Source: a virus. From it: a stretch of DNA of 64,000 nt. The notes beneath the pieces are model-generated. The model saw nothing but the letters and a program-made list of their open reading frames with translations. It made no database searches and was not told where the DNA came from. The stretch lies in the UHGV virus genome UHGV-0076294; one strand, 5' to 3'. The position numbers and the translations under genes are program-made. Shown here in pieces: positions 2,837 to 53,133 of this stretch. Each line of letters begins with the position of its first letter. Position 1 is the stretch's first letter.

Positions 2837-3226
2837 ATGCGTCTTATCTGCGCTTTGTTGGCGTTTTTCTCAATCGGAGTTATGGCTTCTACACACATCG
2901 ACGATTTATTACTTACCCCGGCAACGAACACAGACTATCACTACAACCCACCGGGTTTTGAAGTCTGCGAAGGCGATGCAGGCGAATGCCAAGAAGTTGG
3001 CGCAGATGGACGCTATATACTCGTAAAAGCAGACGGAGGAACAACCTGCCCTGCGGGTTATTATTTCGTACTTGACTCTGTAGCAAAAGAGGTACTTCCT
3101 GTAACGACCAAAACGTGTGACCCCACAGTTGTACTAACGCTTGCGAAAAGCAAATCACGTGACCGTCACTTTATTGTCATCGAAGAACGCGGTGAGATGT
3201 TAGGTGCTATCGAATTAGATTACTGA
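2837..3226 (+). CDS. small secreted cysteine-containing protein (paralogue of 2416-2826)
   Basis: Signal peptide MRLICALLAFFSIGVMAS; CEGDAGECQ...DGRYILVKADGGTTC matches previous gene; RBS AAGGAG. Confidence 0.7.
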   Translation: MRLICALLAFFSIGVMASTHIDDLLLTPATNTDYHYNPPGFEVCEGDAGECQEVGADGRYILVKADGGTTCPAGYYFVLDSVAKEVLPVTTKTCDPTVVLTLAKSKSRDRHFIVIEERGEMLGAIELDY

Positions 3227-3237
3227 TGTGTAGTCTT

Positions 3238-3277
3238 GACCCCGGCACGTGCCGATTCGTCCGGGGTCCTTTTTACG
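3238..3277 (+). terminator. intrinsic terminator
   Basis: GACCCCGG / CCGGGGTC stem with 15-nt loop, then CTTTTTACG. Confidence 0.55.
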
Positions 3278-3305
3278 ACCTGTTTTACCTAAAGGAGAAT
3301 TAAAA

Positions 3306-3782
3306 ATGCGTTTATCTAATGTTTATCAAGCGGCCCAATTCCATCACGAGCTGACGGCTAAGCCTGAATATATTCGCCACAACTTAACGGTGGCTTGGAA
3401 ACTGCTATTGATTGCTGATGCTGCACGACACAACGACCAGGAAACTATTATCAAAACCGTGCGTACTTTACGCCCTATTGACCTGGAAACAATTTGGTCG
3501 TTTGACTTAACTCGAATTTATCATCGTCGCTTTAATGCGGCGGTGGATGCGATACGTCCTTATTTCCACTATTTGCAAGCAACATCAGACTGTGGTCCAT
3601 CCTTAGAGTGGGTCTTGGTACAAAGCGTATGGAGCGATTACATTTATCTCCTATCTTTAGAGACGGGTGAATGCATTATCGCTAACGAGGTATTCTCAAC
3701 CAACGCCGAAATGTATCGTTCCCACGCTACTATCCAGGGTGTCTCACAGCCTATCTTATCACTCACGCACTTAGGGCTGTGA
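3306..3782 (+). CDS. hypothetical protein
   Basis: ORF track starts at 3249 but ATG 3306 follows AAAGGAGAA RBS and lies downstream of the terminator; 158 aa. Confidence 0.6.
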   Translation: MRLSNVYQAAQFHHELTAKPEYIRHNLTVAWKLLLIADAARHNDQETIIKTVRTLRPIDLETIWSFDLTRIYHRRFNAAVDAIRPYFHYLQATSDCGPSLEWVLVQSVWSDYIYLLSLETGECIIANEVFSTNAEMYRSHATIQGVSQPILSLTHLGL

Positions 3783-3787
3783 TTAGC

Positions 3788-3820
3788 CCGGCCCCGCTGT
3801 GTACGGGGCTTCTTTTTTGC
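3788..3820 (+). terminator. intrinsic terminator
   Basis: GCCCCG-ctgtgta-CGGGGC hairpin followed by TTCTTTTTTG. Confidence 0.6.
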
Positions 3821-3836
3821 CAAAGGAAACTGAAAC

Positions 3837-4445
3837 ATGAACGAAATTACTTTGGTTCGTTTTATCGAAGCGATGCGACTAAACGAAGCTAATCCTCACT
3901 CTCCGTTATTTATCGATTTAATGGAGGAAGAAGTCGAAGGGTTCTTAGCGTACCCGCGTTTGAAAGCGTATTTCGAACGTAAAACACCAACCGCTTACGA
4001 AAAGCTGATGTACGCGTTAGATAACCGTACTACGCTAAATAATACGCCGTTTAAAGCGCTGGAAGCAATAGACCCTACCGGGGGTGCAGGTATCCCACAA
4101 CGTGTTGTGTTCTACTACATCGACAACGGTCGTATTAAGGCCGACGTTGTAAATTGGATCTCTGAAGGGGAAATTCCAGAAACGCGTACTTTTAACCTCT
4201 GCCCGGTAGAAGAAGGTTGGGTCGCAGGAACACATTATTCCTATCCGTATCAAAGCATCAAATCACCTTATCTGTACCCGGTGTATTTGGATGACGTTAC
4301 GCCAGGCAAATGTGTTCCCGTTACCAATCTGATTTGTTTACTGACGATGGAAGTTGTTGCGTCTGACGCAGGCCAGGCTTGGGTTGAGCAATCGAAAAAT
4401 ATCCAAAACTGGCAGGGGATGGGTTACAAACTCTACCAGCCGTAA
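3837..4445 (+). CDS. hypothetical protein
   Basis: 202-aa ORF with AAAGGAAA RBS, bounded by terminators on both sides. Confidence 0.6.
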   Translation: MNEITLVRFIEAMRLNEANPHSPLFIDLMEEEVEGFLAYPRLKAYFERKTPTAYEKLMYALDNRTTLNNTPFKALEAIDPTGGAGIPQRVVFYYIDNGRIKADVVNWISEGEIPETRTFNLCPVEEGWVAGTHYSYPYQSIKSPYLYPVYLDDVTPGKCVPVTNLICLLTMEVVASDAGQAWVEQSKNIQNWQGMGYKLYQP

Positions 4446-4451
4446 TACCAC

Positions 4452-4495
4452 GAGAGAACCTTCGGGTTCTCTCCCTTCTCTTTTATTTTTTTCTT
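4452..4495 (+). terminator. intrinsic terminator
   Basis: GAGAGAACC-ttcg-GGTTCTCTC hairpin followed by long T-rich run. Confidence 0.7.
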
Positions 4496-4528
4496 TTTAC
4501 ACCACGCTCCGTGAATATGGAGGTGGAC

Positions 4529-7033
4529 ATGTTAAAAGTTGAACGTATTGTACTTAAAGGGTTTACCGGAATGGGATTACACGAAATCGAAACCTTCGAT
4601 TTTACTATCCATTCCCCAACCACCATTATCCTCGGTGGTAACGGCTGCGGTAAGACCAGCTTACTGTCCGTGTTTCTACCTATCGCACCTTCGAAATCCG
4701 AATTCCGTGACGGGGGTTCTTACACCAACATCTGTTTGGTTAACGACCATCGTTACAAATTTAAGGTTGCACGTAAAGGCAACTCACTGGTTTGCGATAT
4801 CGAGAACCTGACGACGGGCACCAAAATCGTCGAACAAGGTAATGCGAAAGTGTATAACTCTCGTGTAGAAGAAATCACGGGCATTACAAAAGAGATTAAA
4901 GAGTTACTGAACGGAGAAGTGCTTTTAACGGATGCAGGAACGGAACTGCGTCGTAAGTGGTTCTACCGTTTAAGTACGTCAGACTTAACTTACGCGTTAG
5001 GTTTTTATCAACGTTTACGAAAAAACCTGACGATGTTAAACGGCGGTATTGAAATCACCAGCCGCAAGATTGCAGAGTTGCGTACCCGCGTGATTGATAA
5101 CGAGGAAGAACGTCAGCAGTTAGCAACACGGTTAAAAGCATTAGAAGTGGATTTACGTGAAGTCAACAAACAGATTGAACAACTGCCTGGTCTGAATCGC
5201 GACGTTACGGTGGCAACGATTCAATCGCTATTGCTTAAAATCGAAGCACCGATTAATGCTATCTTGGAACACCGTGGCGGATTACCTACGGAAGAACGGG
5301 TAGAGGAAGCACGACGCGTTGAAGCCACTGCCCGTGAAGCGGTGGTCTCTGCTGAAACAGAACTGTCCATGCTAAACAAAGATTTGTCTTTGTTGATGGA
5401 CGAGTCTACCCGCCAAGATTACCTGATGCGGAATCACGAAGGGTTAAAGAACACGGTTGCAAAACTGCGTGAGTTATTAAAGCAGTGGGACACCGAACAT
5501 CTTTTCCCTGAACTGTTTGCGGAGACCGTTAACATCGACCAGCTTAAAGCAGCGACGGATGCGCGTGTCTGGGGACAACGTTTAGGAACAACGCTGGACG
5601 CCATTAAATCGACAGAACGGTTGAACGTACTGGAAGAGAAACTGTTGACCTTAGACCAAAACTCATCTGGGTTGCGTGACCGACTACAACGCGTTGAAAA
5701 CGTATTGCAGAACCTCAACCACGAACGGAATCACTATTTGGAAACCGCCGAGGTTGATTGTCCGCAGTGTCAATTTAAATTCCGTCCGGGCGTGCGTCGT
5801 TCTTTGCCTGAATTGGAAGAAGCCATTCGTGGACAAATGGAGCAACGTAATACGTTACAGACTCAGCTTGATTCCGTATTGCGAGACCGTACGGAATTAG
5901 AGTCGGACGTTAATTACATGCGTCAAGTACGAGAAATCGTTTTAACATACTCGAAAGACCCGGTATTGAGTTTGTTCTTTAAACGTCTCCAGGAGCGGAA
6001 TGTCTTTACGGATAACCGCAGTCAATTCGGCAGTTTGTGTGCAGAGTTCGATCGTGAACTTTATTCCGCAATTGAATACCACGAAACGAAACACCGTTTT
6101 GCTAAAGCGGAAAAAGAGTGGGCAAACGCAGTTGCAGCGGTAGGTAACGTTGACGGTGCACTACAGCAGAAAATTGCCTTCCAGCAGGAGCGTTTGGGTA
6201 AGGCGACAGAAACGCTCTCAGAGCGCCGTAGAGAGCACGCAGTTGCTAATGATACCTTTTGTTATCTAAACGAACTTAAAGCCACTGTAGACAATTTTAA
6301 TGCGGTTTTTGAGCGTTTAGAGAACGATGTTAAGGTAACATTAACCAATACGGTGGTCGAAACGTTATTAAACGCCCGAGAAAACAAGTTGGATGCGTTC
6401 ACCACAGCACGGGAACGGTACCGTCAGATGGAAAACGAGCTCAACCAACTTACTGCGTTAGAAAAGGAGTTATCGGATTTACAGGCACAGCAATTCAATA
6501 ACAAACTGATGATTCAAGCGTTCTCGCCCGAGAAAGGGGTATTACGCAAATACTTCTACAACGCTATCGTGAGAATCACAGAATTAATGACGCGCTATAT
6601 CGAACAAGTCTGGACCTACCCTATGCGGGTCATGCCGTGTGACTTAACCGATGGTGACTTAGACTACACGTTCCCAGTGCAGTTAAAAACCCATCCTGAA
6701 CCGGTACCTGACGTGCGGAAAGGGTCGAAAGCACAGCGAGCCATCTTTAATTTGATGTTTCGTTTAACCGCTTACAAAGCCCTGAAACTTCATCAGTATC
6801 CGCTACTGTTGGATGAACCGTCAGAAGGGATGGATGAGGAACACCGAAATAACCTCGTCGGGTTTATTAAAACCCTGGCGAATTCCGGTGAGTTCTCTCA
6901 GTTACTGGTGGTATCTCACGAAGCAGAAATTCATTCAAAACTTAACGAAGCCGCATACTGTGTTATTGAACCTGAAGGCGTAACACTGCCTGCGGTATAC
7001 AACGAGGGAGTAAAAATTGTCTACGCAAACTGA
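4529..7033 (+). CDS. Rad50/SbcC-like recombination ATPase (T4 gp46-like)
   Basis: Walker A GGNGCGKTS, long coiled-coil middle with CPQC zinc-hook-like motif, Walker B LLLDEPSEGMD and VVSHE H-loop near C-terminus. Start moved to ATG 4529 after GGAGGTGG RBS (ORF track 4511). Confidence 0.7.
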   Translation: MLKVERIVLKGFTGMGLHEIETFDFTIHSPTTIILGGNGCGKTSLLSVFLPIAPSKSEFRDGGSYTNICLVNDHRYKFKVARKGNSLVCDIENLTTGTKIVEQGNAKVYNSRVEEITGITKEIKELLNGEVLLTDAGTELRRKWFYRLSTSDLTYALGFYQRLRKNLTMLNGGIEITSRKIAELRTRVIDNEEERQQLATRLKALEVDLREVNKQIEQLPGLNRDVTVATIQSLLLKIEAPINAILEHRGGLPTEERVEEARRVEATAREAVVSAETELSMLNKDLSLLMDESTRQDYLMRNHEGLKNTVAKLRELLKQWDTEHLFPELFAETVNIDQLKAATDARVWGQRLGTTLDAIKSTERLNVLEEKLLTLDQNSSGLRDRLQRVENVLQNLNHERNHYLETAEVDCPQCQFKFRPGVRRSLPELEEAIRGQMEQRNTLQTQLDSVLRDRTELESDVNYMRQVREIVLTYSKDPVLSLFFKRLQERNVFTDNRSQFGSLCAEFDRELYSAIEYHETKHRFAKAEKEWANAVAAVGNVDGALQQKIAFQQERLGKATETLSERRREHAVANDTFCYLNELKATVDNFNAVFERLENDVKVTLTNTVVETLLNARENKLDAFTTARERYRQMENELNQLTALEKELSDLQAQQFNNKLMIQAFSPEKGVLRKYFYNAIVRITELMTRYIEQVWTYPMRVMPCDLTDGDLDYTFPVQLKTHPEPVPDVRKGSKAQRAIFNLMFRLTAYKALKLHQYPLLLDEPSEGMDEEHRNNLVGFIKTLANSGEFSQLLVVSHEAEIHSKLNEAAYCVIEPEGVTLPAVYNEGVKIVYAN

Positions 7034-31985: not shown

Positions 31986-31991
31986 CACCTA

Positions 31992-32028
31992 CCCTACTCC
32001 CAGACAGGAGTAGGGTATTTTCATTTTT
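31992..32028 (+). terminator. intrinsic terminator (CCCTACTCC family)
   Basis: CCCTACTCC-cagaca-GGAGTAGGG followed by TATTTTCATTTTT. Confidence 0.7.
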
Positions 32029-32956: not shown

Positions 32957-33502
32957 ATGAAACAAATACAGTTAACTGATCACGTTAATGCGTTTAAACA
33001 CTTTCTGGATAACGCGGGTATAAAACCTGGCGAACAGACAGACGCATGGACTGCACGTGTTTACGGAAGTATTGGCAAAGTCTGTGAGTCCACGACAACA
33101 CAGGACGGGTTGTTTGTTGCTAAAGCAGTAGGTATTGCCTTGTGGGATATTGCTGCTTTGGTTTACGTGATGAATAACGGGGATTTACGTCCCCTTGAAA
33201 AATCTTTACACCGACTACTGGCCATTAAGAAATGGAAAAATGAACATCCTGAGTCAATCGCGATTACGTTGATGCCAGAAGCGGTACTTGCTATCAAAGC
33301 GGTACGCAGTTGTACCGCCCGTGCACAAATGGAGCGTCGGTTACATCTCACGACGCTCTTTTATCAATTGGCCAGAATTGTAAAGATGAACGGCCTAATC
33401 TTCGACCGGGTTCTACAGAACGGACGTATAAGTTGGACAGAAGAACTAAGTAGTTCTCCGTTCTATACAAAACTGAAGCTTAAAGATATTTTGAAGGATT
33501 AA
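32957..33502 (+). CDS. hypothetical protein
   Basis: 181-aa ORF; RBS region ATCGGAAATG. Confidence 0.5.
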   Translation: MKQIQLTDHVNAFKHFLDNAGIKPGEQTDAWTARVYGSIGKVCESTTTQDGLFVAKAVGIALWDIAALVYVMNNGDLRPLEKSLHRLLAIKKWKNEHPESIAITLMPEAVLAIKAVRSCTARAQMERRLHLTTLFYQLARIVKMNGLIFDRVLQNGRISWTEELSSSPFYTKLKLKDILKD

Positions 33503-33503
33503 C

Positions 33504-33812
33504 ATGGAAAACTATTCGGGTTGGGCGATTTCGCAGTGCATTGGCTATTCTTTACGTTCTTTAGTGCGTACACTTTATAACAAAAACTCGGGTGAAGCTA
33601 TTACACCGCAGTTATTGGGCAAACTGGAAGTCGAAGTTAACTATAAACTAAAACAGTTACTCGACAACCACGTAAGAACAATGCGTTGGGAGTTCTTGCT
33701 ACGTGGTAAGAAGCCTTCAATTACCGTTGTAGCAGAAGGTAGTGAAATCGTACTGCAATCCAACGCAGACCTGTTTGAAATTTTAACTGAACTAGAAAAG
33801 GACAAAATCTAA
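33504..33812 (+). CDS. hypothetical protein
   Basis: 102-aa ORF; stop overlaps thyA start (TAATG). Confidence 0.5.
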
Positions 33813-34852
33813 TGAAACAGTATTTAGCGTTAATGCAAGACATTCTGGATAACGGCGTTGTCAAAAAAGACCGTACGGGCGTAGGGACACTTTCTGTATT
33901 TGGTCGCCAACTACGTTTTGACCTGAAAGAAGGTTTCCCATTAGTTACTACGAAAAAGGTTCACCTGAAAAGTATCATTCATGAACTGTTATGGTTCTTG
34001 AACGGTGACACTAACGTGAAGTACCTGCAAGAGAATGGGGTAAGAATCTGGAACGAGTGGGCGAATGAAGAAGGGGAATTAGGCCCTGTCTACGGACACC
34101 AGTGGCGAGAATGGATGGATACCAAACTGGTTTATCTTTGGGACGAGCGTAGCAAGGACGTATTGAGAAAACGAGGATATCGCTACGTTGGGACTATCGC
34201 AAAGGACGATCCTGAAGAAAGTATCGTTATTTATCGCAAATCTCACGACCAGATCAGCAAAGTTATCCAGCAACTTCGTGAAGACCCTGACTCCCGCCGT
34301 ATTATCGTTAGTGCCTGGAACGTAGCCGACCTAGACGATATGGCACTTAACCCATGTCACAACTATTTCCAATTCTACACAACGGAAATGACGTTGCCTG
34401 AACGACTGGATTGGTACGAAGTAAACGAACCGGAAAAATTTGCGAACGCACCACTTATTAATCACGAAGATATCGATAGCGAAGAACGACTTCACGAAAT
34501 TTTAGATCGTGAAGGTATCCCACGTCGTAAACTTTCGTGTTTTTACATGATGCGGAGCAACGATTACCTACTCGGCGCGCCGTTTAACGTCGCTTCTTAC
34601 GCGTTGTTAACCCACATGATTGCTCAACAACTCAATATGGTTCCAGACGAGTTAGTTTACAGTGGCGTGGACGTTCATCTGTACTCTAACCATCTGGAGC
34701 AGGCAAAACTTCAACTTACTCGCGAACCTTACCCGCTACCTAAACTGGTTATCAAACGTAAACCTGATTCTATCTTCGATTACAAATACGAAGACTTCGA
34801 ATTGGTTGGATATCAATCGCACGACACAATTAAAGCTCCCATAGCTGTCTAA
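33812..34852 (+). CDS. thyA: thymidylate synthase (ThyA family) with two internal insertions
   Basis: Near-identity to E. coli ThyA over conserved blocks (MKQYL..., DRTGTGT-like, [17 protein letters not shown], catalytic [29 protein letters not shown]); 346 aa versus ~264. Confidence 0.9.
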
Positions 34853-34859
34853 GGGGTAC

Positions 34860-35156
34860 ATGATGATTAATGAGAAATCGTACGCGGAGTTAACTTCTTT
34901 CGGTATTAGTCGATTAGCTGAACTAAAAACTATCACCGAGCGTGCCGGAATAGCATTGCAGGCCAAAGGTAAGTTTGATCAAGGCGATATCGAAATCTTA
35001 GAAAAGATTTCGGCAACGTTAAAAGACTTACGTGTATTGAATATTCTTGTTGGTAAATTGGGTGGCCTAAGTAACAAGAAATTGGCCGAAATACACGGAG
35101 TGACGCCAAGCCGAATATCTCAAATCATCAGCAAGGCCAAACGAGATTTTCAATAA
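34860..35156 (+). CDS. small DNA-binding protein with sigma-70 region-4-like HTH
   Basis: C-terminal LAEIHGVTPSRISQIISKAKRDF resembles sigma-70 region 4.2 helix-turn-helix; 98 aa. Confidence 0.5.
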   Translation: MMINEKSYAELTSFGISRLAELKTITERAGIALQAKGKFDQGDIEILEKISATLKDLRVLNILVGKLGGLSNKKLAEIHGVTPSRISQIISKAKRDFQ

Positions 35157-35190
35157 GGTTATTTCGCTTGTAGTTAAAAGGAACATTGAA

Positions 35191-35637
35191 ATGTCTAAAA
35201 CTCATGTTAACTATAACATCGTAGTAGAAGAATTATCAAAAGGTTTAACCGACCTGGATTCTAAAGATAACCCATTTACCGATCGTTATGGAGCCAAAGC
35301 TTTATCTGAGTTCCGTACTATCCGCTACGGTACAGGTAGACAGACAGGGCTTACAGACTTTGCTGTCGAGTTAGCTAAGAACCATAAAGGGAAGGTATTA
35401 TTCGTTAATCCAAAAGGGTTCTTAGAGGACGATGTGCTATTCCGTTTGGGTCTCGAAGACTTACCGGAGAATATCACCCAAATCATTGGTTACCAAATGG
35501 GTACAGAAAAAGAAAAATACAGCCTTGTTATTGTAGACAACGCTGGGGTTTTCTTTAGCATTTTCCGTTACATGAAGTTCTTTCGCTTACTGGCAAACTC
35601 AGTAACTAAAGACGTCGTAATACATTTAATGGGTTAA
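35191..35637 (+). CDS. hypothetical protein
   Basis: 148-aa ORF; RBS AAAGGAAC. Confidence 0.5.
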   Translation: MSKTHVNYNIVVEELSKGLTDLDSKDNPFTDRYGAKALSEFRTIRYGTGRQTGLTDFAVELAKNHKGKVLFVNPKGFLEDDVLFRLGLEDLPENITQIIGYQMGTEKEKYSLVIVDNAGVFFSIFRYMKFFRLLANSVTKDVVIHLMG

Positions 35638-35655
35638 TCAGTGGGGGTTAGTTCT

Positions 35656-35826
35656 ATGGAAGAATTAGAGGCGGTTCCCTGTTACATTCCTAGAAGAGGT
35701 GTTATAAAAGAATGTTTCATCGATCGTATTTTGATCTCTCGTATCAAGAAAGGTCCAAGAAAACATCAAACCAAGAAGGTATTTATTTATAAATACTTCG
35801 AAAAGATTCTATTCCAACCTTACTGA
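35656..35826 (+). CDS. small basic protein with KGPxK motif (repeat 1 of 3)
   Basis: 56 aa from ATG 35656 (ORF track begins at GTG 35641); IKKGPRKHQTKKVFIYKY. Confidence 0.3.
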   Translation: MEELEAVPCYIPRRGVIKECFIDRILISRIKKGPRKHQTKKVFIYKYFEKILFQPY

Positions 35827-35854
35827 CTAAATTAACTCAGGGAGTAAATTTGCT

Positions 35855-36052
35855 ATGTTAGACGATGTTCTTAATTTCACGATAATGTATTTCGAACCGA
35901 AGAAGTTCCGTACTATCGCCACACGTTACTGTAAAGGGCCGAACAAAGGACGTAAACGTTTCCAAGTAATTCAACTTGATTATTCCAAGTTCCTTGTAGC
36001 TAATCCATTCGAGCGGAAACCTAATGAAGAAACTGGATTTGGTCAAAATTGA
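35855..36052 (+). CDS. small basic protein with KGPxK motif (repeat 2 of 3)
   Basis: 65 aa; CKGPNKGRKRFQVIQLD; different frame from neighbours. Confidence 0.3.
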   Translation: MLDDVLNFTIMYFEPKKFRTIATRYCKGPNKGRKRFQVIQLDYSKFLVANPFERKPNEETGFGQN

Positions 36053-36239
36053 TTATCTCGTTGGAGGGGTAATTTTTATCGGTTACGCGCATAAACGCAA
36101 AGGTCCTGGTAAATCCAGGACTCGCGGGTTCCGTATAGTGAAAAGAAACCATAATATTAATCCTCTAATAATGGTCTTAGGAAAGCTAACCTTTTTAATT
36201 TCAAAACGTGTGCCATCTTTGGTAAAATTTGGAGAGTAA
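36024..36239 (+). CDS. small basic protein with KGPxK motif (repeat 3 of 3)
   Basis: 71 aa; KRKGPGKSRTRGFRIVKRN; overlaps previous ORF by 29 nt in a third frame. Confidence 0.3.
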   Translation: MKKLDLVKIDYLVGGVIFIGYAHKRKGPGKSRTRGFRIVKRNHNINPLIMVLGKLTFLISKRVPSLVKFGE

Positions 36240-36241
36240 AA

Positions 36242-36385
36242 ATGACTGAAGAAGTTAAAGTAGAAACCGTTAAAGAAACTGACGAATTTGCAATCCCTGG
36301 CTTAGACCCGGAAGCTACTGTAGAGAAGGGTGCTGACCCAACCACGGAAGACGATAACTGCTCAGGCGGGGCTTGCAAAATTTAA
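36242..36385 (+). CDS. small acidic protein (47 aa)
   Basis: Not in ORF track. ATG after GGAGAG RBS; MTEEVKVETVKETDEFAIPGLDPEATVEKGADPTTEDDNCSGGACKI; followed by its own terminator. Confidence 0.35.
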   Translation: MTEEVKVETVKETDEFAIPGLDPEATVEKGADPTTEDDNCSGGACKI

Positions 36386-36393
36386 CAGTTCAC

Positions 36394-36432
36394 GGGGTGC
36401 TTATGTAGCACCCCTAATCCTTATTCTTTTTT
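36394..36432 (+). terminator. intrinsic terminator
   Basis: GGGGTGC-ttatgta-GCACCCC followed by TAATCCTTATTCTTTTTT. Confidence 0.65.
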
Positions 36433-36453
36433 GTTAATCTAATGGAGTTTAAA

Positions 36454-37292: not shown

Positions 37293-37338
37293 ACCTACCT
37301 CCTTTCGGAGGTAGGTTAACTTTCTTATTTTTTCTTTT
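37293..37338. terminator. bidirectional intrinsic terminator (ACCTACCTCC family)
   Basis: ACCTACCTCC-tttc-GGAGGTAGGT flanked by A-run upstream and long T-run downstream, between convergent genes. Confidence 0.7.
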
Positions 37339-47337: not shown

Positions 47338-48963
47338 GTGAATAAACTTAATTGGGTTGACTTTTATCTGCTCAATGTAAACAAGTCTCTTGTGTCGCGA
47401 TTACGACCCGTCACGACCACAGATACTTTTCAAGGGTTGACAAAAAACTTTCACCCTGAAGGGTTGTACTCCACGGAGATTTTCGGTCTTACGGGAAGTG
47501 AAGCCCGAGACTCAACGTTTTCTTACATTGATATTAAATTAGATATCATTTCGCCGACGGTGTGTTTGGCGTTATTCCAACTAAAACAACTCTACGAAGA
47601 AATTTGTTCTGGAAAACGCTACGCAACCTGGAACGAAAAAGAAAAAGATTTTGAACCGGCTTTGCCTGGCGACGCTGGCGCAGATACCGGTTTTAACTTT
47701 TTCCTTAGTCACTACAACGACTTAAAACCCGGACGTAACGAATCGTTACAACGTGACGAAACGGTGGATTTCTTCGAGAAGTTCCGTCCCGTGAGTCTTA
47801 GCCGCTATGTTCTCGTATTACCCGCGGGTTTACGTGATTTGGTGGTTAGACAAGACGGTAGGGAACAGGAAGAGGAAATCGGTGGGTTATATCGTCGTTT
47901 GATTTCTTTGGCCAGGGCGATTCCTGACCGTGCTACACGGGTTGAATTAACGAACCCTGTGCGATGGAAACTCCAACAAACCTTTAACGAAATCTGGATG
48001 TACTTCTTTAACATCCAGGACGGTAAAGGAGGTTTCCAACGTCGTAAAGTGACGTCGCGTAAACTGATGAACGGGACACGTAACGTATTGTCCTCATTCT
48101 CCACAGGCTCTAAATGCATGGGGCGTGAGGATGCGATTCGACCGACCGACACCAAAATTGGTTTGTATCAGGGTCTGAAAGCGTTGCTACCTGTTGCGCA
48201 ATACCAGATACGTGAACGTTACCTCGGTAACATTCGTGCTGGCGATGGCAACCTTTATGGCGTAAACACCAAAACGCTTAAACGCGAGTTCTTGGAGGTT
48301 GGGGGTCGTGTTTACGACACCTTTACCACAGACGACGGTATCGAAACATTAATTAACCGGATGGAAGCTCGCGAGCTTCGTCATCAACCGTTAATGATTA
48401 ACGATACCCATTACGTCGCACTGGTCTACCAAGACAACAAACATTTTAAGGTGTTCTACGATATCGATGAACTGCCTAAAACGTTTGACCGTAAAAACGT
48501 CCACGGAATGACCCTGGTAGAATTACTCTACTTATCGGGTTACGAACTGTGGAACAACTATTTCGGTTTCGTTACGCGTTATCCCGTCACCGGTCGAGGC
48601 TCGACGTACTCATCGACCATAAGATTGGAGACCACCACGTCATCTTTATACCTAAAAGAACTGGAAGATGACTGGGAGACTGAAAAGCCACACGGAGCTA
48701 TCAGTTATCCTGACAGGTCGGTTCCAACCTTTGTTGAGTCGATGGCACCGCACCCGTCACGATTGGGTGGCTTAGGGGGTGACTACGATGGTGACACCGG
48801 TTCACTTAACGCGCCTATGTCGCAAGAAGCACTCGAGGAAAACCGTAACTGGATACACTCGAAGAACTACTGGTTCGATTCTGACGGGAATTTCAAAATC
48901 AATCCTGTCAACAACGTGATTAAACGTGCGACGCAAGCGTTATTAAAGAATCCAAAAGGCTAA
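47338..48963 (+). CDS. RNA polymerase beta-prime-like subunit, N-terminal fragment type, tentative
   Basis: GTG start after AGGAGA RBS. C-terminal ...TRYPVTGRG...APHPSRLGGLGGDYDGDTGSLNAPMSQEALEE parallels beta-prime NRAPTLH...LHP...[23 protein letters not shown]; motif position (~485 of 541) matches E. coli beta-prime (~460). Confidence 0.5.
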   Translation: MNKLNWVDFYLLNVNKSLVSRLRPVTTTDTFQGLTKNFHPEGLYSTEIFGLTGSEARDSTFSYIDIKLDIISPTVCLALFQLKQLYEEICSGKRYATWNEKEKDFEPALPGDAGADTGFNFFLSHYNDLKPGRNESLQRDETVDFFEKFRPVSLSRYVLVLPAGLRDLVVRQDGREQEEEIGGLYRRLISLARAIPDRATRVELTNPVRWKLQQTFNEIWMYFFNIQDGKGGFQRRKVTSRKLMNGTRNVLSSFSTGSKCMGREDAIRPTDTKIGLYQGLKALLPVAQYQIRERYLGNIRAGDGNLYGVNTKTLKREFLEVGGRVYDTFTTDDGIETLINRMEARELRHQPLMINDTHYVALVYQDNKHFKVFYDIDELPKTFDRKNVHGMTLVELLYLSGYELWNNYFGFVTRYPVTGRGSTYSSTIRLETTTSSLYLKELEDDWETEKPHGAISYPDRSVPTFVESMAPHPSRLGGLGGDYDGDTGSLNAPMSQEALEENRNWIHSKNYWFDSDGNFKINPVNNVIKRATQALLKNPKG

Positions 48964-48966
48964 TCA

Positions 48967-51900
48967 ATGCTGCTCATTAAACAGTTTAACCAACGCTTCT
49001 CTGTGCGTAAAACAGACGAGTTTGGTAATCCGAGGATTATCCCGCTCGAGAAGCTCCAGATACCACGAGGCTCTATACTGCACGTCGTGGATCTCGATCA
49101 GGTGGTCTTAGCGCCACCTGCTACGCTGGAAATCATCCAGCCGTTGGAAAAACCTGCACAAATTCGCCACCACTTTAAACTTCCCGAAGAAGGGATCAGT
49201 GGGCATCCACGTAACAAACCTGTGCAGGGGCAAGAACGTGCTATCTTTGCGTACCATCGCGCTAACCGTCCAATTCGTCGCCTGACTTCAGACGACCTGA
49301 TTCGTAAAGACTTAAAAGTTCTCCTTATCGAGAACTACACACCGATGTTATCGCATTACTACTATCCAGACACTCAGTTAGCCTGGTACGATAGACTGCG
49401 TAACATCCAGCTGTTAATGACTAACCAGTTCAAATACGACACGCAAGAATACATGCGTCAAAACTACTTCGTGATTGAGCTGGGGTCAACGTTACCGTCT
49501 TTCCAGAAGTTCCAAACGACGTATAACGATCGTGTTAAAAGCAAGATTGAAAAGTTCCAGGACTTTAACCTGTTGTGGTTATTGGAACTGTTCGCTTGGG
49601 CATACGGTAAACAGTCCGATTCTCTGTTTGCAGGAATGGACTTAACGCAACTGTCTCGAATGAACTTCATCTTCACCCACAACAGCGGCTTTACGTCGAT
49701 GAACATGGGTGTCGTGGAGAAGATGCGTAAATCGTCCGGTGGTCGTTTAAGTGACGATCAAATGGCCAGGATGTTCTATCGTACGTTAGTGCGTGTAATG
49801 ACACAAGCACCGTCTAATGCGTACGAAGCTGAATTCCTGACACCGGAAGGTGATGAACGTATCTTTGTTAAGGACATCGAAGAGGATACCGTTGACGTCG
49901 TTGACGATACAGACGTTGTTAACGACGCTGTGGTTGAATCGGATAACGCTTTCGATGAAAAAGAAGACCTCGTTATTGAGGAGCCGAAAGAAGACGTTAA
50001 GCCGACGACTATCGTTATCGAAAAAACGATTGCTCACGATGACATTATCAAACAGGAAGCGCAGAAACTGGCTGAGGCGGGCCGCTTAAGCTCCAAAGCG
50101 TATCAGTTCCTGTCTGATTCGACCAAACGTTTCGTTCAGTTACCAAACCCGTACAACCCGAAAGAGACTTACGGCGAAGCATTAACCATTCACGAAAAAG
50201 ACATTGCCGTGAAAGCGGAACCGAAGAAAGTCCAGCGACTGGTTACGGATGAAGGTTGGGCAGAAAACGTCACCGACCAAATGGTGAAACAATACAACCA
50301 GACCATGATGAGTAAAGACGTGCTGGCAGCAGTCGCCAGCTCGCAGCGTCTTGGTTTGGCTATTCACAACCACACGATCGAGAAAGAGATTTCCGTTACG
50401 GGAACTATCGAACACCACACCCTGCGAGTTCAACCGATTGGTGGTGAACCGACGACAGTGCGTTTCTCTATCCCTGGTTTAACCGAAGACGGTACCTGGG
50501 TAGCAAACGGTGTTGAATACACCATGCGTCGTCAGCGTGTAGACGTGCCGATTCGTAAGGTCGCCCCAGACACCGTAGCGTTAACTACCGCTTACGGTAA
50601 AAACTTCGTACGTCGTAGTGACAAAGTCGCAAACGACTACGGCCGTTGGTTAACGAACGCGATTATCACGCGTGCCGTAGACCCGACCAACACGGAGATC
50701 ACAGACGCACGACTCGCGAACGTTTTCGATCCTACTGAGAAACTTCCTCGTCAGTACACGGAGATTGCACGTCGTATCGCCAGCTTCAATGCAGGCGGGT
50801 ATATGTGGAACTTCGATTATAAAGAAGCGGTTAACTTCTTTAATGACGAACAACTTACTGACGCAAATAACGTTGAGATGTTGCCGGTTGCGAAACGTCC
50901 GCGCAGTGAAGTTATTGTGGTGATGGATACCAAGTCCATGCTCTATACCGTTAAAGGTAAAGAGTGTACACCACTGGGTACCATCTTGGAAGTGCTTGGT
51001 TTCAGTAGCCAGAAAGCGCCAAGAGAAATGACTGAGCTTTCACTGATGGGCAAATCGCTCTCACTGGGCTTCATCTTCTCGTTCTATTTAGGTCTGCAAG
51101 GGATGCTTAAACATTTCGGCATTCAGTACGAAATCGTCCCTGTTGGCCAACGTGTAGATAAGAGCACGTACGATTCTATTATTCGTCTCCAGGACAGTAA
51201 GTTCCTGGTAACGTGTGATAACGATCAGCAACGAATGATTCTACACGGTCTGGATAAGTACCTGAAACACCTGGTGGCTTATACCGAGTCCGAAGTCGAC
51301 CGCGAAGACATTTACCTGAACTTAATACGTGATGCAGATGGGCTAACCCCACGCTACATCAACGAGCTGAAACAAATGCGGGCCGCGTTTGTTGATGACA
51401 TGCACGCACGTATCCTCAGGAAAATGGGTGAACCGGAAACCTTTATCGGGCTATTGGAACGTTCTAACGAACTGTTACAAACCGACCACTCTTTACCGGA
51501 GATTAACGGTGATGAGATGATGTTCTTAGGGAACCAACGTATTTCCTACCACATCTACACTGCGATGGTCAGGGCGATGCGTAACTACAACAACGCACCG
51601 AACAGTAACCGTAAGTTCGAGCTTACTCAGGACATGATTTGGGGCGCAATTAACTCCGACCCGTCTGTTCTGTTAGCGCCGGGTGCTAACCCTATCCAGT
51701 CGATTAAAGAGAAAGACGTTATCACCATGGGGGGTACGGGCGGCCGTAACCGTAAAACAATGGTTTATCACACGCGTGAGTTCCAACCGAGTGACCTGGG
51801 TATTGTTTCCGGTAACACGGTGGATAACGGTGATGTAGGTATTACTGCTTTCGCCACTAACAACCCACGTTTCGATACCGTTGACGGCACAACCTATAAA

Positions 51901-53133
51901 CGGGATGAAAAGAAACTGAAACCGAGCGACACTCTGTCATTTATTGACGGTCTCGTGCCGGATACCCTGATGGATGACGCTAAACGTCAAAACTTCGTTG
52001 GGATTCAGTTAGGTTCTGCCACCAGTTGCAACGGCGCTACCACTACCCCTTATCGTACCGAACAGGAGAAATTTGTCGCTCACCGTACGTCGGTGAAACA
52101 CGCACGCGTTATTGATAAAGCAGGTAAAATCACCGGTCTGTCTAAAGACCATATCGAAATTACGTACGAAGATGGAAGTAAAGAAGCCTTTCCTCTAGGG
52201 CGCTGGTTCGGCCCCCACGAAGGTACCTTCTATCCGCACACCCTGGTGACTCGCTGGAAAGCCGGTGACAAACTCCCGGCCGGGGCAGTCATCACTTATA
52301 ACGAGCAACACTTTGAACCCGATATCTACGACCCTACTCAGGTTTCCTGGAAAAACGGGGTGCTGGCTACCGTCGCTTTAATCGAGGCTGAAGAAGTAAT
52401 CGAAGACTCCAATGCTATTTCTGAACGGTTCGCGAAGAAAATGGTTGGGCAGGTTACTAAGCTGAAAGAAGTGGTGATTAACAGCAACCAGATGCTCCTG
52501 GAAATCGTTAACGAAGGGGAACACGTTGACGTCGACACAATCCTATGCACATTTACTGACGACCTTACGGGGGATATGAGTACCTTTAGTAAGGAAGCAG
52601 CACAAACGTTGCAAAGTTTAAGTTCGTACGCACCTCGTGCTGGGGTTCGTGGTATCGTGGATAAAATCGAAGTCGTGTATCACGGTGAAACCGAAGACAT
52701 GACGCCTTCACTGGCAGAACTGGTACGCAAATACGATCGTATTCGTCGTAAAGCAGCGTTGGCTGTTAATCGTGGCGATCCGGTATCAGGGAGTGTTAAT
52801 GGGGATTACCGTGTAGAGGGTGTACCGTTAGCCTTTAACTCGCTTTGTGTTCGATTCTTTATTACGCACGAAGTTGAAATGGCCGCAGCGGATAAGATGG
52901 TTATTGCTAACCAGCTGAAAACCACTGTACAAGAAGTGATGTACGGGGAAAACAAAACAGAAGATGGCGACGACATTGACATTTTGTTCGGTCGTGATTC
53001 TGTCGACGCACGTATTGTAGGTTCTATCCAACGAATCGGTACCGCAAATGCTGTGGGTGAACAAGCAGGGATTCTTATCGGTCGTATTCTCGACGGCGAG
53101 TCCGTGCCTGAGTTACCAGCGACACTTAAATAA
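48967..53133 (+). CDS. large hypothetical protein (1388 aa), possibly another RNAP subunit or virion protein
   Basis: Starts 3 nt after the beta-prime-like gene; acidic low-complexity insert (DTVDVVDDTDVVNDAVVESDNAFDEKEDL); no canonical beta or beta-prime motif recognised by eye. Confidence 0.6.
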   Translation: MLLIKQFNQRFSVRKTDEFGNPRIIPLEKLQIPRGSILHVVDLDQVVLAPPATLEIIQPLEKPAQIRHHFKLPEEGISGHPRNKPVQGQERAIFAYHRANRPIRRLTSDDLIRKDLKVLLIENYTPMLSHYYYPDTQLAWYDRLRNIQLLMTNQFKYDTQEYMRQNYFVIELGSTLPSFQKFQTTYNDRVKSKIEKFQDFNLLWLLELFAWAYGKQSDSLFAGMDLTQLSRMNFIFTHNSGFTSMNMGVVEKMRKSSGGRLSDDQMARMFYRTLVRVMTQAPSNAYEAEFLTPEGDERIFVKDIEEDTVDVVDDTDVVNDAVVESDNAFDEKEDLVIEEPKEDVKPTTIVIEKTIAHDDIIKQEAQKLAEAGRLSSKAYQFLSDSTKRFVQLPNPYNPKETYGEALTIHEKDIAVKAEPKKVQRLVTDEGWAENVTDQMVKQYNQTMMSKDVLAAVASSQRLGLAIHNHTIEKEISVTGTIEHHTLRVQPIGGEPTTVRFSIPGLTEDGTWVANGVEYTMRRQRVDVPIRKVAPDTVALTTAYGKNFVRRSDKVANDYGRWLTNAIITRAVDPTNTEITDARLANVFDPTEKLPRQYTEIARRIASFNAGGYMWNFDYKEAVNFFNDEQLTDANNVEMLPVAKRPRSEVIVVMDTKSMLYTVKGKECTPLGTILEVLGFSSQKAPREMTELSLMGKSLSLGFIFSFYLGLQGMLKHFGIQYEIVPVGQRVDKSTYDSIIRLQDSKFLVTCDNDQQRMILHGLDKYLKHLVAYTESEVDREDIYLNLIRDADGLTPRYINELKQMRAAFVDDMHARILRKMGEPETFIGLLERSNELLQTDHSLPEINGDEMMFLGNQRISYHIYTAMVRAMRNYNNAPNSNRKFELTQDMIWGAINSDPSVLLAPGANPIQSIKEKDVITMGGTGGRNRKTMVYHTREFQPSDLGIVSGNTVDNGDVGITAFATNNPRFDTVDGTTYKRDEKKLKPSDTLSFIDGLVPDTLMDDAKRQNFVGIQLGSATSCNGATTTPYRTEQEKFVAHRTSVKHARVIDKAGKITGLSKDHIEITYEDGSKEAFPLGRWFGPHEGTFYPHTLVTRWKAGDKLPAGAVITYNEQHFEPDIYDPTQVSWKNGVLATVALIEAEEVIEDSNAISERFAKKMVGQVTKLKEVVINSNQMLLEIVNEGEHVDVDTILCTFTDDLTGDMSTFSKEAAQTLQSLSSYAPRAGVRGIVDKIEVVYHGETEDMTPSLAELVRKYDRIRRKAALAVNRGDPVSGSVNGDYRVEGVPLAFNSLCVRFFITHEVEMAAADKMVIANQLKTTVQEVMYGENKTEDGDDIDILFGRDSVDARIVGSIQRIGTANAVGEQAGILIGRILDGESVPELPATLK

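Follow-up and report, generated by a model that had tools for sequence, protein, structure and literature searches.

A predicted sigma region 4-like helix-turn-helix protein encoded directly after thyA in a phiKZ-like jumbo phage

The viral genome stretch analyzed here (64,000 nucleotides of UHGV-0076294, hereafter the window) contains, directly after thyA, a gene for a 98-aa protein. We conclude from profile matches and predicted topology that residues ~46–95 form a putative diverged helix-turn-helix (HTH) of the sigma-4/LuxR superfamily, closest to region 4 of sigma-28 (FliA/WhiG) and of ECF sigma factors. The protein is not itself a sigma factor and cannot act as one alone, because it has no region 2: the chain is 98 aa in total, there is no Sigma70_r2 match, and the matches to sigma models begin at positions 74–110 of 165. 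The reading that we favor, and hold with moderate confidence, is that of a small helical protein that would bind DNA through its recognition helix, use its helical hairpin for oligomerization or for a partner, and regulate a limited set of promoters.

The coding sequence occupies positions 34860–35156 of the plus strand, from an ATG start through the stop codon, with a further in-frame ATG at 34863. Both the position of this open reading frame and the peptide quoted in a preliminary description of the locus (LAEIHGVTPSRISQIISKAKRDF; residues 75–97, nucleotides 35082–35150) were confirmed in the sequence. The frame begins after a gap of 7 nt from the thyA stop codon (TAA, 34850–34852), and a Shine-Dalgarno-like AAGGGG (34851–34856, plus strand) overlaps that stop; the homologous thyA-linked loci have an equivalent element (TAAGGAG/TAAGGGG or TAGGAGG) over their thyA stop codons. 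Comparison with four homologous contigs yielded Nei-Gojobori dN/dS values of 0.07–0.13, with dS up to ~1.9, the C-terminal 30 residues (the HTH segment) being the most tightly constrained (omega 0–0.06) and the N-terminal helix the least (omega 0.1–0.3). Because dN/dS is low and the Shine-Dalgarno element at the thyA stop is kept in the homologous loci, we regard the frame as a genuine gene under purifying selection and not a chance ORF. No Rfam RNA family was found over it.

The protein was modeled with AlphaFold2 in two runs that used different alignments (mean pLDDT 88.0 and 88.4, with all five models of the second run at 82–88), and both gave the same helices at residues 5–36, 41–67, 72–79, and 83–97. 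The predicted fold is a long antiparallel helical hairpin (residues 5–67), the second helix of which leads into a C-terminal HTH. Helix A, the first and least constrained arm of the hairpin, corresponds to nucleotides 34872–34967 of the plus strand and helix B, the second arm, to 34980–35060 (plus strand); helix B lies within the alignments to WhiG and other sigma factors, and its C-terminal half (LRVLNILVGKL) aligns to the region 4.1-type scaffold helix of sigma. The HTH itself, made up of helix 72–79, a turn, and the recognition helix 83–97 (35073–35150, plus strand), has a pLDDT of ~96 in the two runs. The recognition helix is the final element of the predicted chain, which stops at residue 98. 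The whole protein is basic (pI 9.7), as is the HTH segment (pI 10.5). The C-terminal HTH put forward in the preliminary description is thus borne out, both by the two AlphaFold2 models, which place it at residues 72–79 and 83–97, and by HTH profile matches beyond chance.

To which class this HTH belongs was assessed with several profile libraries. When the 98-aa protein was searched alone against Pfam, the signal exceeded the chance level, with library-corrected E-values of 0.0019 for HTH_3 (18.6 bits), 0.0033 for HTH_24 (17.4 bits), and 0.0046 for Sigma70_r4 (16.9 bits, residues 69–93), all of them sub-threshold. The preliminary description had proposed a search with the two sigma region 4 models, and this did return a Sigma70_r4 match, albeit at scores (16.9 bits for PF04545 and 14.7 bits for Sigma70_r4_2, PF08281) below the gathering thresholds of 24.1 and 25.7 bits. 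The assignment as sigma-70 region 4 type made there stands as the best-fitting HTH class over a match of ~50 residues that takes in 4.1 plus 4.2; it does not extend to passing any curated threshold, and XRE models score about equally on the bare motif.

The sigma-4 type is preferred over other HTH classes because of the number of family members matched, the length of the matches, and the position of the recognition helix at the end of the chain. Sigma70_r4 is the Pfam model that matches the most family members (8 of 13, each below threshold), and one 108-aa paralog reaches 23.9 bits on Sigma70_r4_2 (cutoff 25.7). Among the NCBIfam models, sigma70-ECF and FliA_WhiG each match seven of nine members, and distant members reach best values of E = 5.7e-6 and 1.4e-6 on the sigma models, the latter in a paralog. 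Residues 46–95 of the 98-aa protein (34995–35144, plus strand) align to model positions 110–159 of 165 in sigma70-ECF (TIGR02937, E = 2.9e-4), and the family alignments to the NCBIfam sigma models are in register and cover nearly the full protein length in several members, one example being residues 7–97 of a member aligned to FliA_WhiG positions 124–215 of 224. The XRE and lambda-repressor-like domains have two more helices after the recognition helix, LuxR/GerE domains have one more, and winged HTH domains have a wing. The AlphaFold2 order of helices (41–67, 72–79, and 83–97, with the recognition helix last) is that of Sigma70_r4.

The 98-aa protein formally belongs to no curated family, since every match falls below the curated cutoff. 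On the whole-protein sigma models it scored 20.5 bits against a cutoff of 42.9 (TIGR02937) and 17.6 bits against 189.6 (TIGR02479), with 28 bits as the best score in the family. For HTH_3 the 18.6 bits compare with a threshold of 23, and the helices that complete the five-helix bundle beyond the recognition helix are missing; for LuxR/GerE a single paralog matches GerE, at 20.3 bits against 23.5, and the C-terminal helix of that class is absent. A profile search of PDB sequences ranked several sigma factors, WhiG and FliA among them, near the top, together with one XRE protein and LuxR/FixJ domains, and these matches were marginal (E ≥ 0.06) even with an enlarged family alignment. Foldseek gave local matches alone (E ~1) to sigma-A region 4, LuxR-type, and AsnC-type HTH domains. 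In a viral structure library, the matches beyond family members included phage sigma factors, DUF1492, and several short proteins (78–86 aa) whose annotation reads sigma-70 region 4 or ECF sigma.

The family, which is small and has no annotation, has so far turned up only in Chimalliviridae and related metagenomic contigs. A collection of 5.8 billion proteins contained 13 clusters at 80–98% identity, which stem exclusively from metagenomes or isolate assemblies and lack any Pfam domain, and an exhaustive HMMER scan of 1.84 billion representatives recovered 11 proteins at E ≤ 1e-3, about six of which are true small homologs (96–131 aa). Among 50,697 phage genomes, tblastn matches were confined to jumbo phages of Klebsiella and Serratia; megablast of the locus against the same records gave no match, and distant blastn and tblastn were required. 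In Siatvirus, a chimallivirus, the module forms the N-terminus of a 224-aa protein, and Eowynvirus also has a copy; all of these are annotated "hypothetical protein." A search of IMG/VR with a closer alignment found two loci only, no PHROG family contains the 98-aa protein, and PADLOC returned only weak, sub-significant matches for it (E ≥ 0.009).

The window holds a single copy of the family, and another contig (L011) has a tandem pair of homologs after thyA. In a Siatvirus-like contig (L008, positions 2931–6040), at least four sigma-4-like paralogs of 96, 108, 200, and 100 aa lie within ~3.5 kb and adjoin a Macro-domain gene. This cluster is a lineage-specific expansion of the family, and its 200-aa member is a paralog of the 224-aa Siatvirus protein. 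A "Rosetta stone" connection with a ~200-aa gene, the one overlapping the homolog's start in Eowyn-like loci, was rejected, as its protein is unrelated to the Siatvirus extension.

Within the family, Gly-69, just upstream of the HTH, and Ala-76 are invariant. In the recognition helix, Arg-85, Ser-87, and Gln-88 show little or no variation among homologs of 24–98% identity. The recognition-helix pattern given in the preliminary description (VT-x-x-RI-x-QI-x-x-KA) needs trimming at its end: the x-x-KA tail is not conserved in distant homologs.

The window derives from a phiKZ-like jumbo phage. It encodes split RNA polymerase (RNAP) subunits of beta/beta' type at 47338–48963 and 48967–53133, and the larger subunit shares 82% identity with its counterpart in Erwinia phage Asesino and 77% with the one in Salmonella phage SPN3US; Erskinevirus, the genus of Asesino, is classified in Chimalliviridae. 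The premise of the preliminary description that the phage may use an RNAP of its own was therefore correct in that genes for a multisubunit RNAP are present in the window.

The upstream neighbor, thyA (33812–34852, plus strand), encodes a thymidylate synthase of 346 aa (Pfam PF00303, E = 1.7e-110). With the Pfam model at 266 positions, the phage ThyA has ~80 extra residues, and the ThyA proteins of relatives are of similar size (339–345 aa). In the SPN3US-like lineage, every contig with the gene has its homolog (34–98% identity) directly after thyA, the contigs with this linkage being the window, L005/L006, L011, and L014–L019. Two terminator-like hairpins, one at 31990–32017 (plus strand) and a bidirectional one after mazG at 37293–37316, are the likely upstream and downstream limits of the transcription unit, and would probably bracket a thyA–mazG operon. 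Because no terminator-like site was predicted between thyA and the 98-aa ORF and the ribosome-binding site overlaps the thyA stop, we infer that the protein is expressed from a thyA-to-mazG mRNA. The gene would then be co-transcribed with thyA, possibly with translational coupling, and probably co-expressed with the genes of nucleotide metabolism. Neither operator-like inverted or direct repeats nor sigma-70-type promoters were found above background near the gene.

The segment between the 98-aa gene and mazG (35157–36441) is hypervariable among genomes that are otherwise 80–98% identical (loci L014–L018 and L020). In the window it holds a 148-aa gene and small ORFs of 61, 65, and 71 aa, and in relatives the same slot holds ORFs of 65 and 73 aa, one of 58 aa, a 121-aa fusion, or a 176-aa gene. 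The 148-aa neighbor (35191–35637, plus strand) falls in phrog_2586, has no Pfam match, and contains Walker A/B-like motifs (RYGTGRQTGLT and LVIVDNAG) that are conserved in Asesino gp254 and in the SPFM4 and Caitlin homologs; it may be a very small NTPase-like protein. That the 98- and 148-aa ORFs are parts of one split or fused gene was rejected on two grounds: the C-terminal extension of the 224-aa Siatvirus homolog bears no relation to the 148-aa protein, and several close relatives have the 98-aa gene but no 148-aa gene. A 47-aa ORF at 36242–36385 (plus strand) ends in a conserved peptide with two cysteines (...DDNCSGGACKI). Identity over its last ~30 residues is 68–73% in Asesino, SPFM4, Caitlin, L005, and L011, and the L017 counterpart is joined in frame with the small ORF upstream of it.

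Two adjacent ORFs at 32957–33502 and 33504–33812 (plus strand) encode 181 and 102 aa, the first matching the N-terminal and the second the C-terminal part of phrog_10269. The pair corresponds to what is one gene in Asesino (gp250, 303 aa) and in SPFM4 (289 aa), so the gene is split in the window, and likewise in L014 and L016. The thyA gene is a mobile-element hotspot in this phage group. In L019, an IMG/VR contig of 237 kb, thyA (1094–2991) is broken by a group I intron (Rfam RF00028, 58.5 bits, 2314–2644) and carries an in-frame insertion of ~200 aa with an HTH-like stretch. The idea that the 98-aa protein is the DNA-binding remnant of a homing endonuclease was discarded, as the whole protein is under purifying selection across 24–98% identity and has no nuclease-associated Pfam match.

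By its distribution among relatives, the 98-aa gene is an accessory and apparently dispensable cassette, because it is absent from Asesino, from the SPN3US-like phage SPFM4, from Caitlin, and from a ~90%-identical 222-kb element deposited as a plasmid of E. coli strain 98232 (p98232). In the three phages the syntenic slot is taken by unrelated genes (gp252/gp253-type) with no homology to the 98-aa gene, and in p98232 the 98-aa ORF is cleanly missing, so that thyA lies directly against the next gene. The ThyA proteins of some gene-bearing contigs are 49 and 37% identical to that of the window, as against 61% for Asesino. Since contigs with a distant ThyA keep the gene and the closer Asesino is without it, the gene looks ancestral in its position after thyA and repeatedly lost. 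The protein does not belong to the core transcription machinery of the phage, because its gene is a presence/absence cassette in near-identical genomes and forms paralog clusters in other chimalliviruses.

Some relatives of the phage are deposited as circular "plasmids" of ~222 kb (NZ_CP173450.1, which is L020, and NZ_CP134650.1), from a complete E. coli urine-isolate genome and from Enterobacter ludwigii. Relatives of this type have ~90% nucleotide identity over the aligned two-thirds of a 3.5-kb query, and near-identical proteins occur in isolate assemblies of Shigella flexneri and Salmonella enterica. The plasmid-type deposits suggest stable carriage, as a carrier state or pseudolysogeny, of chimallivirus-like jumbo phages.

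In the regulator that we favor, the protein would be translated from the thyA-to-mazG mRNA, its recognition helix would bind double-stranded DNA through the exposed Arg-85, Ser-87, and Gln-88, and the hairpin would probably serve as a handle for oligomerization or for binding a partner. It would thus be an accessory, non-essential regulator of transcription from a limited set of phage or host promoters. Of jumbo phages, 92% are reported to encode HTH transcription factors of their own, most of them a few each (PMC7824862), and for the phage activator RinA the DNA-recognition determinant was taken to lie in a C-terminal half that resembles sigma region 4 (PMC3152322). Several points count against this reading. 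The search around the gene turned up neither a DNA target nor operator-like repeats nor a promoter of its own, all family matches are sub-cutoff, and a DNA-binding protein that regulates phage genes would, in a phage that forms a nucleus, need to be imported into it. Conservation of Arg-85, Ser-87, and Gln-88 could also stem from a protein partner rather than from DNA. It is plausible that the protein is an ordinary small HTH regulator that the phage can dispense with.

The main alternative, which we consider unlikely, is a sigma-4 mimic with RNAP, rather than DNA, as its primary target; it would dock on a beta-flap-type surface or else titrate a protein that binds sigma-4, such as an anti-sigma factor. 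The surface might be the flap of the host RNAP, where it would compete with host sigma in host shut-off, or the protein might modulate a multisubunit RNAP of the phage. An anti-sigma or appropriator-type role, as put forward in the preliminary description, may likewise apply. The homology does include the helix of 4.1 type, through which sigma binds the flap, and one local Foldseek match is to a chimera of sigma-A region 4 and the beta-flap tip (8cwt_B). Accessory, variable genes are typical of host takeover, and a phage with RNAP subunits of its own can afford host shut-off, and phiKZ infection is reported not to depend on the transcription apparatus of the host (PMC7618050). However, the tightest constraint and the invariant exposed residues are on the recognition helix, which contacts DNA in sigma-4, and not on the hairpin, and the N-terminal helix may itself fill the groove meant for the flap helix.

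To our knowledge, no promoter-recognition subunit has been identified for the virion RNAP. It seems distinctly unlikely that the protein is a dissociable sigma-4 module of a nucleus-forming jumbo phage in either of two further senses, namely as an optional promoter or upstream-element adaptor for a phage RNAP such as the virion enzyme, or as a decoy on the host beta-flap or an anti-sigma factor, by which host transcription would be shut down or rewired.

We judge it quite improbable that the protein is evolutionarily unconnected to sigma factors, as a repressor of generic XRE/Cro type or an antitoxin-like HTH protein would be. HTH_3 is the best single Pfam match of the 98-aa protein, an XRE-type protein (2a6c) tops one of the PDB profile searches, and the HigA model matches four of nine members. 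Yet these matches span ~25 residues, whereas those to sigma models span 50–90 residues in more members and with better E-values, and the chain ends at the recognition helix where XRE/lambda-repressor-like domains need two further helices.

We find it very improbable that the protein is a dissociable "minimal sigma," or part of a split sigma, that would give -35-like recognition to one of the phage multisubunit RNAPs. The notion draws on the occurrence of a region 4-like module in a phage group reported to be without sigma factors, on the single-HTH minimal sigmas described in other jumbo phages (PMC7824862), and on gp68, the fifth subunit of the non-virion RNAP (nvRNAP), which shows that sigma-like partners fit such enzymes (PMC7618050). 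The nvRNAP, however, already has a permanently bound sigma-like subunit and uses promoters without a conserved upstream element (PMC7618050), and several paralogs of the 98-aa protein occur elsewhere. A promoter-specificity subunit had also been suggested in the preliminary description, and in its core form this is unlikely, as the gene is missing from Asesino, SPFM4, Caitlin, and the ~90%-identical genome of the same RNAP-gene lineage. The small-terminase-like binder suggested alongside it, or another non-transcriptional DNA binder of the packaging, partition, or nucleoid type, can be dismissed as extremely improbable, since its sole support is that the protein is small, basic, probably oligomeric, and has an HTH, and this HTH is C-terminal, the gene is dispensable and lies inside the putative thyA–mazG nucleotide-metabolism operon, no terminase or partition family matches the protein in Pfam, PHROGs, or NCBIfam, and none of the neighboring genes scanned matched a terminase family.

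Little is known of transcription regulation in chimalliviruses apart from the RNAP subunits, and a survey of jumbo phages found no sigma factor in group 1 (phiKZ-like), with minimal sigmas and gp33 in group 2 (Iyer et al. 2021; PMC7824862). The gene described here defines a small unannotated family with detectable similarity to bacterial sigma region 4 and with paralog clusters in Siatvirus-like phages. If its product binds DNA, it offers a handle on accessory regulation in chimalliviruses, which may include the carrier state of the ~222-kb "plasmid" relatives; if it binds RNAP instead, it would represent a new kind of sigma mimic.

Compared with region 4 of sigma-28 (FliA/WhiG) and ECF factors, the family shares the hydrophobic scaffold helix ending in G-L-S/T and the HTH with a last-helix recognition motif S-R-I/V-S-Q-I/L, in matches that stay in register over at least 50 residues. 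Unlike sigma factors, the 98-aa protein has no region 2 or 3, has an extra N-terminal helix that forms the hairpin, scores below cutoff, and is encoded by a phage with its own non-canonical RNAPs. The minimal single-HTH sigmas of group 2 jumbo phages and T4 gp33 are likewise stand-alone sigma-like HTH modules, but the group 2 proteins occur in phages without their own RNAP and recruit the host enzyme, whereas the 98-aa protein occurs in group 1 (PMC7824862). The nvRNAP fifth subunit (phiKZ gp68, AR9 gp226) is sigma-related, and the C-terminal domain of gp68 resembles region 4 structurally; gp68, however, is a permanently bound part of the core RNAP of ~520 aa with no detectable sigma sequence similarity (PMC7618050), whereas the 98-aa protein keeps such similarity and is dispensable. 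With 98 aa, and with its absence from close relatives, it is also no fifth subunit of the gp68 type, which is a two-domain protein of ~500 aa in all phiKZ-like phages.

The stand-alone HTH proteins of the LuxR/GerE class have a related tetra-helical HTH, and GerE, FixJ, DosR, and TraR are among the weak sequence or fold matches. In that class the helix following the recognition helix serves dimerization; this helix is absent in the 98-aa protein, and no match reaches the class cutoffs. RinA-type regulators belong to temperate phages of staphylococci and other Gram-positive bacteria, in which the host RNAP is taken to carry out late transcription. The RinA/ArpU/DUF1492-type activators are, like the 98-aa protein, small phage proteins whose C-terminal half has limited similarity to sigma region 4 (PMC3152322), and DUF1492 is among its structural neighbors. 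Unlike RinA and ArpU, its gene lies between thyA and mazG and not upstream of a packaging/morphogenesis module, and neither NCBIfam, searched to E ≤ 0.1, nor Pfam, to E ≤ 1, gave it a sequence match to any of these activator families. The N-terminal hairpin, the restriction to chimalliviruses, and the linkage to thyA form a combination not described in the literature searched, in a protein that belongs to none of these named families and fits the general kind of a stand-alone, sigma-4-like phage HTH protein.
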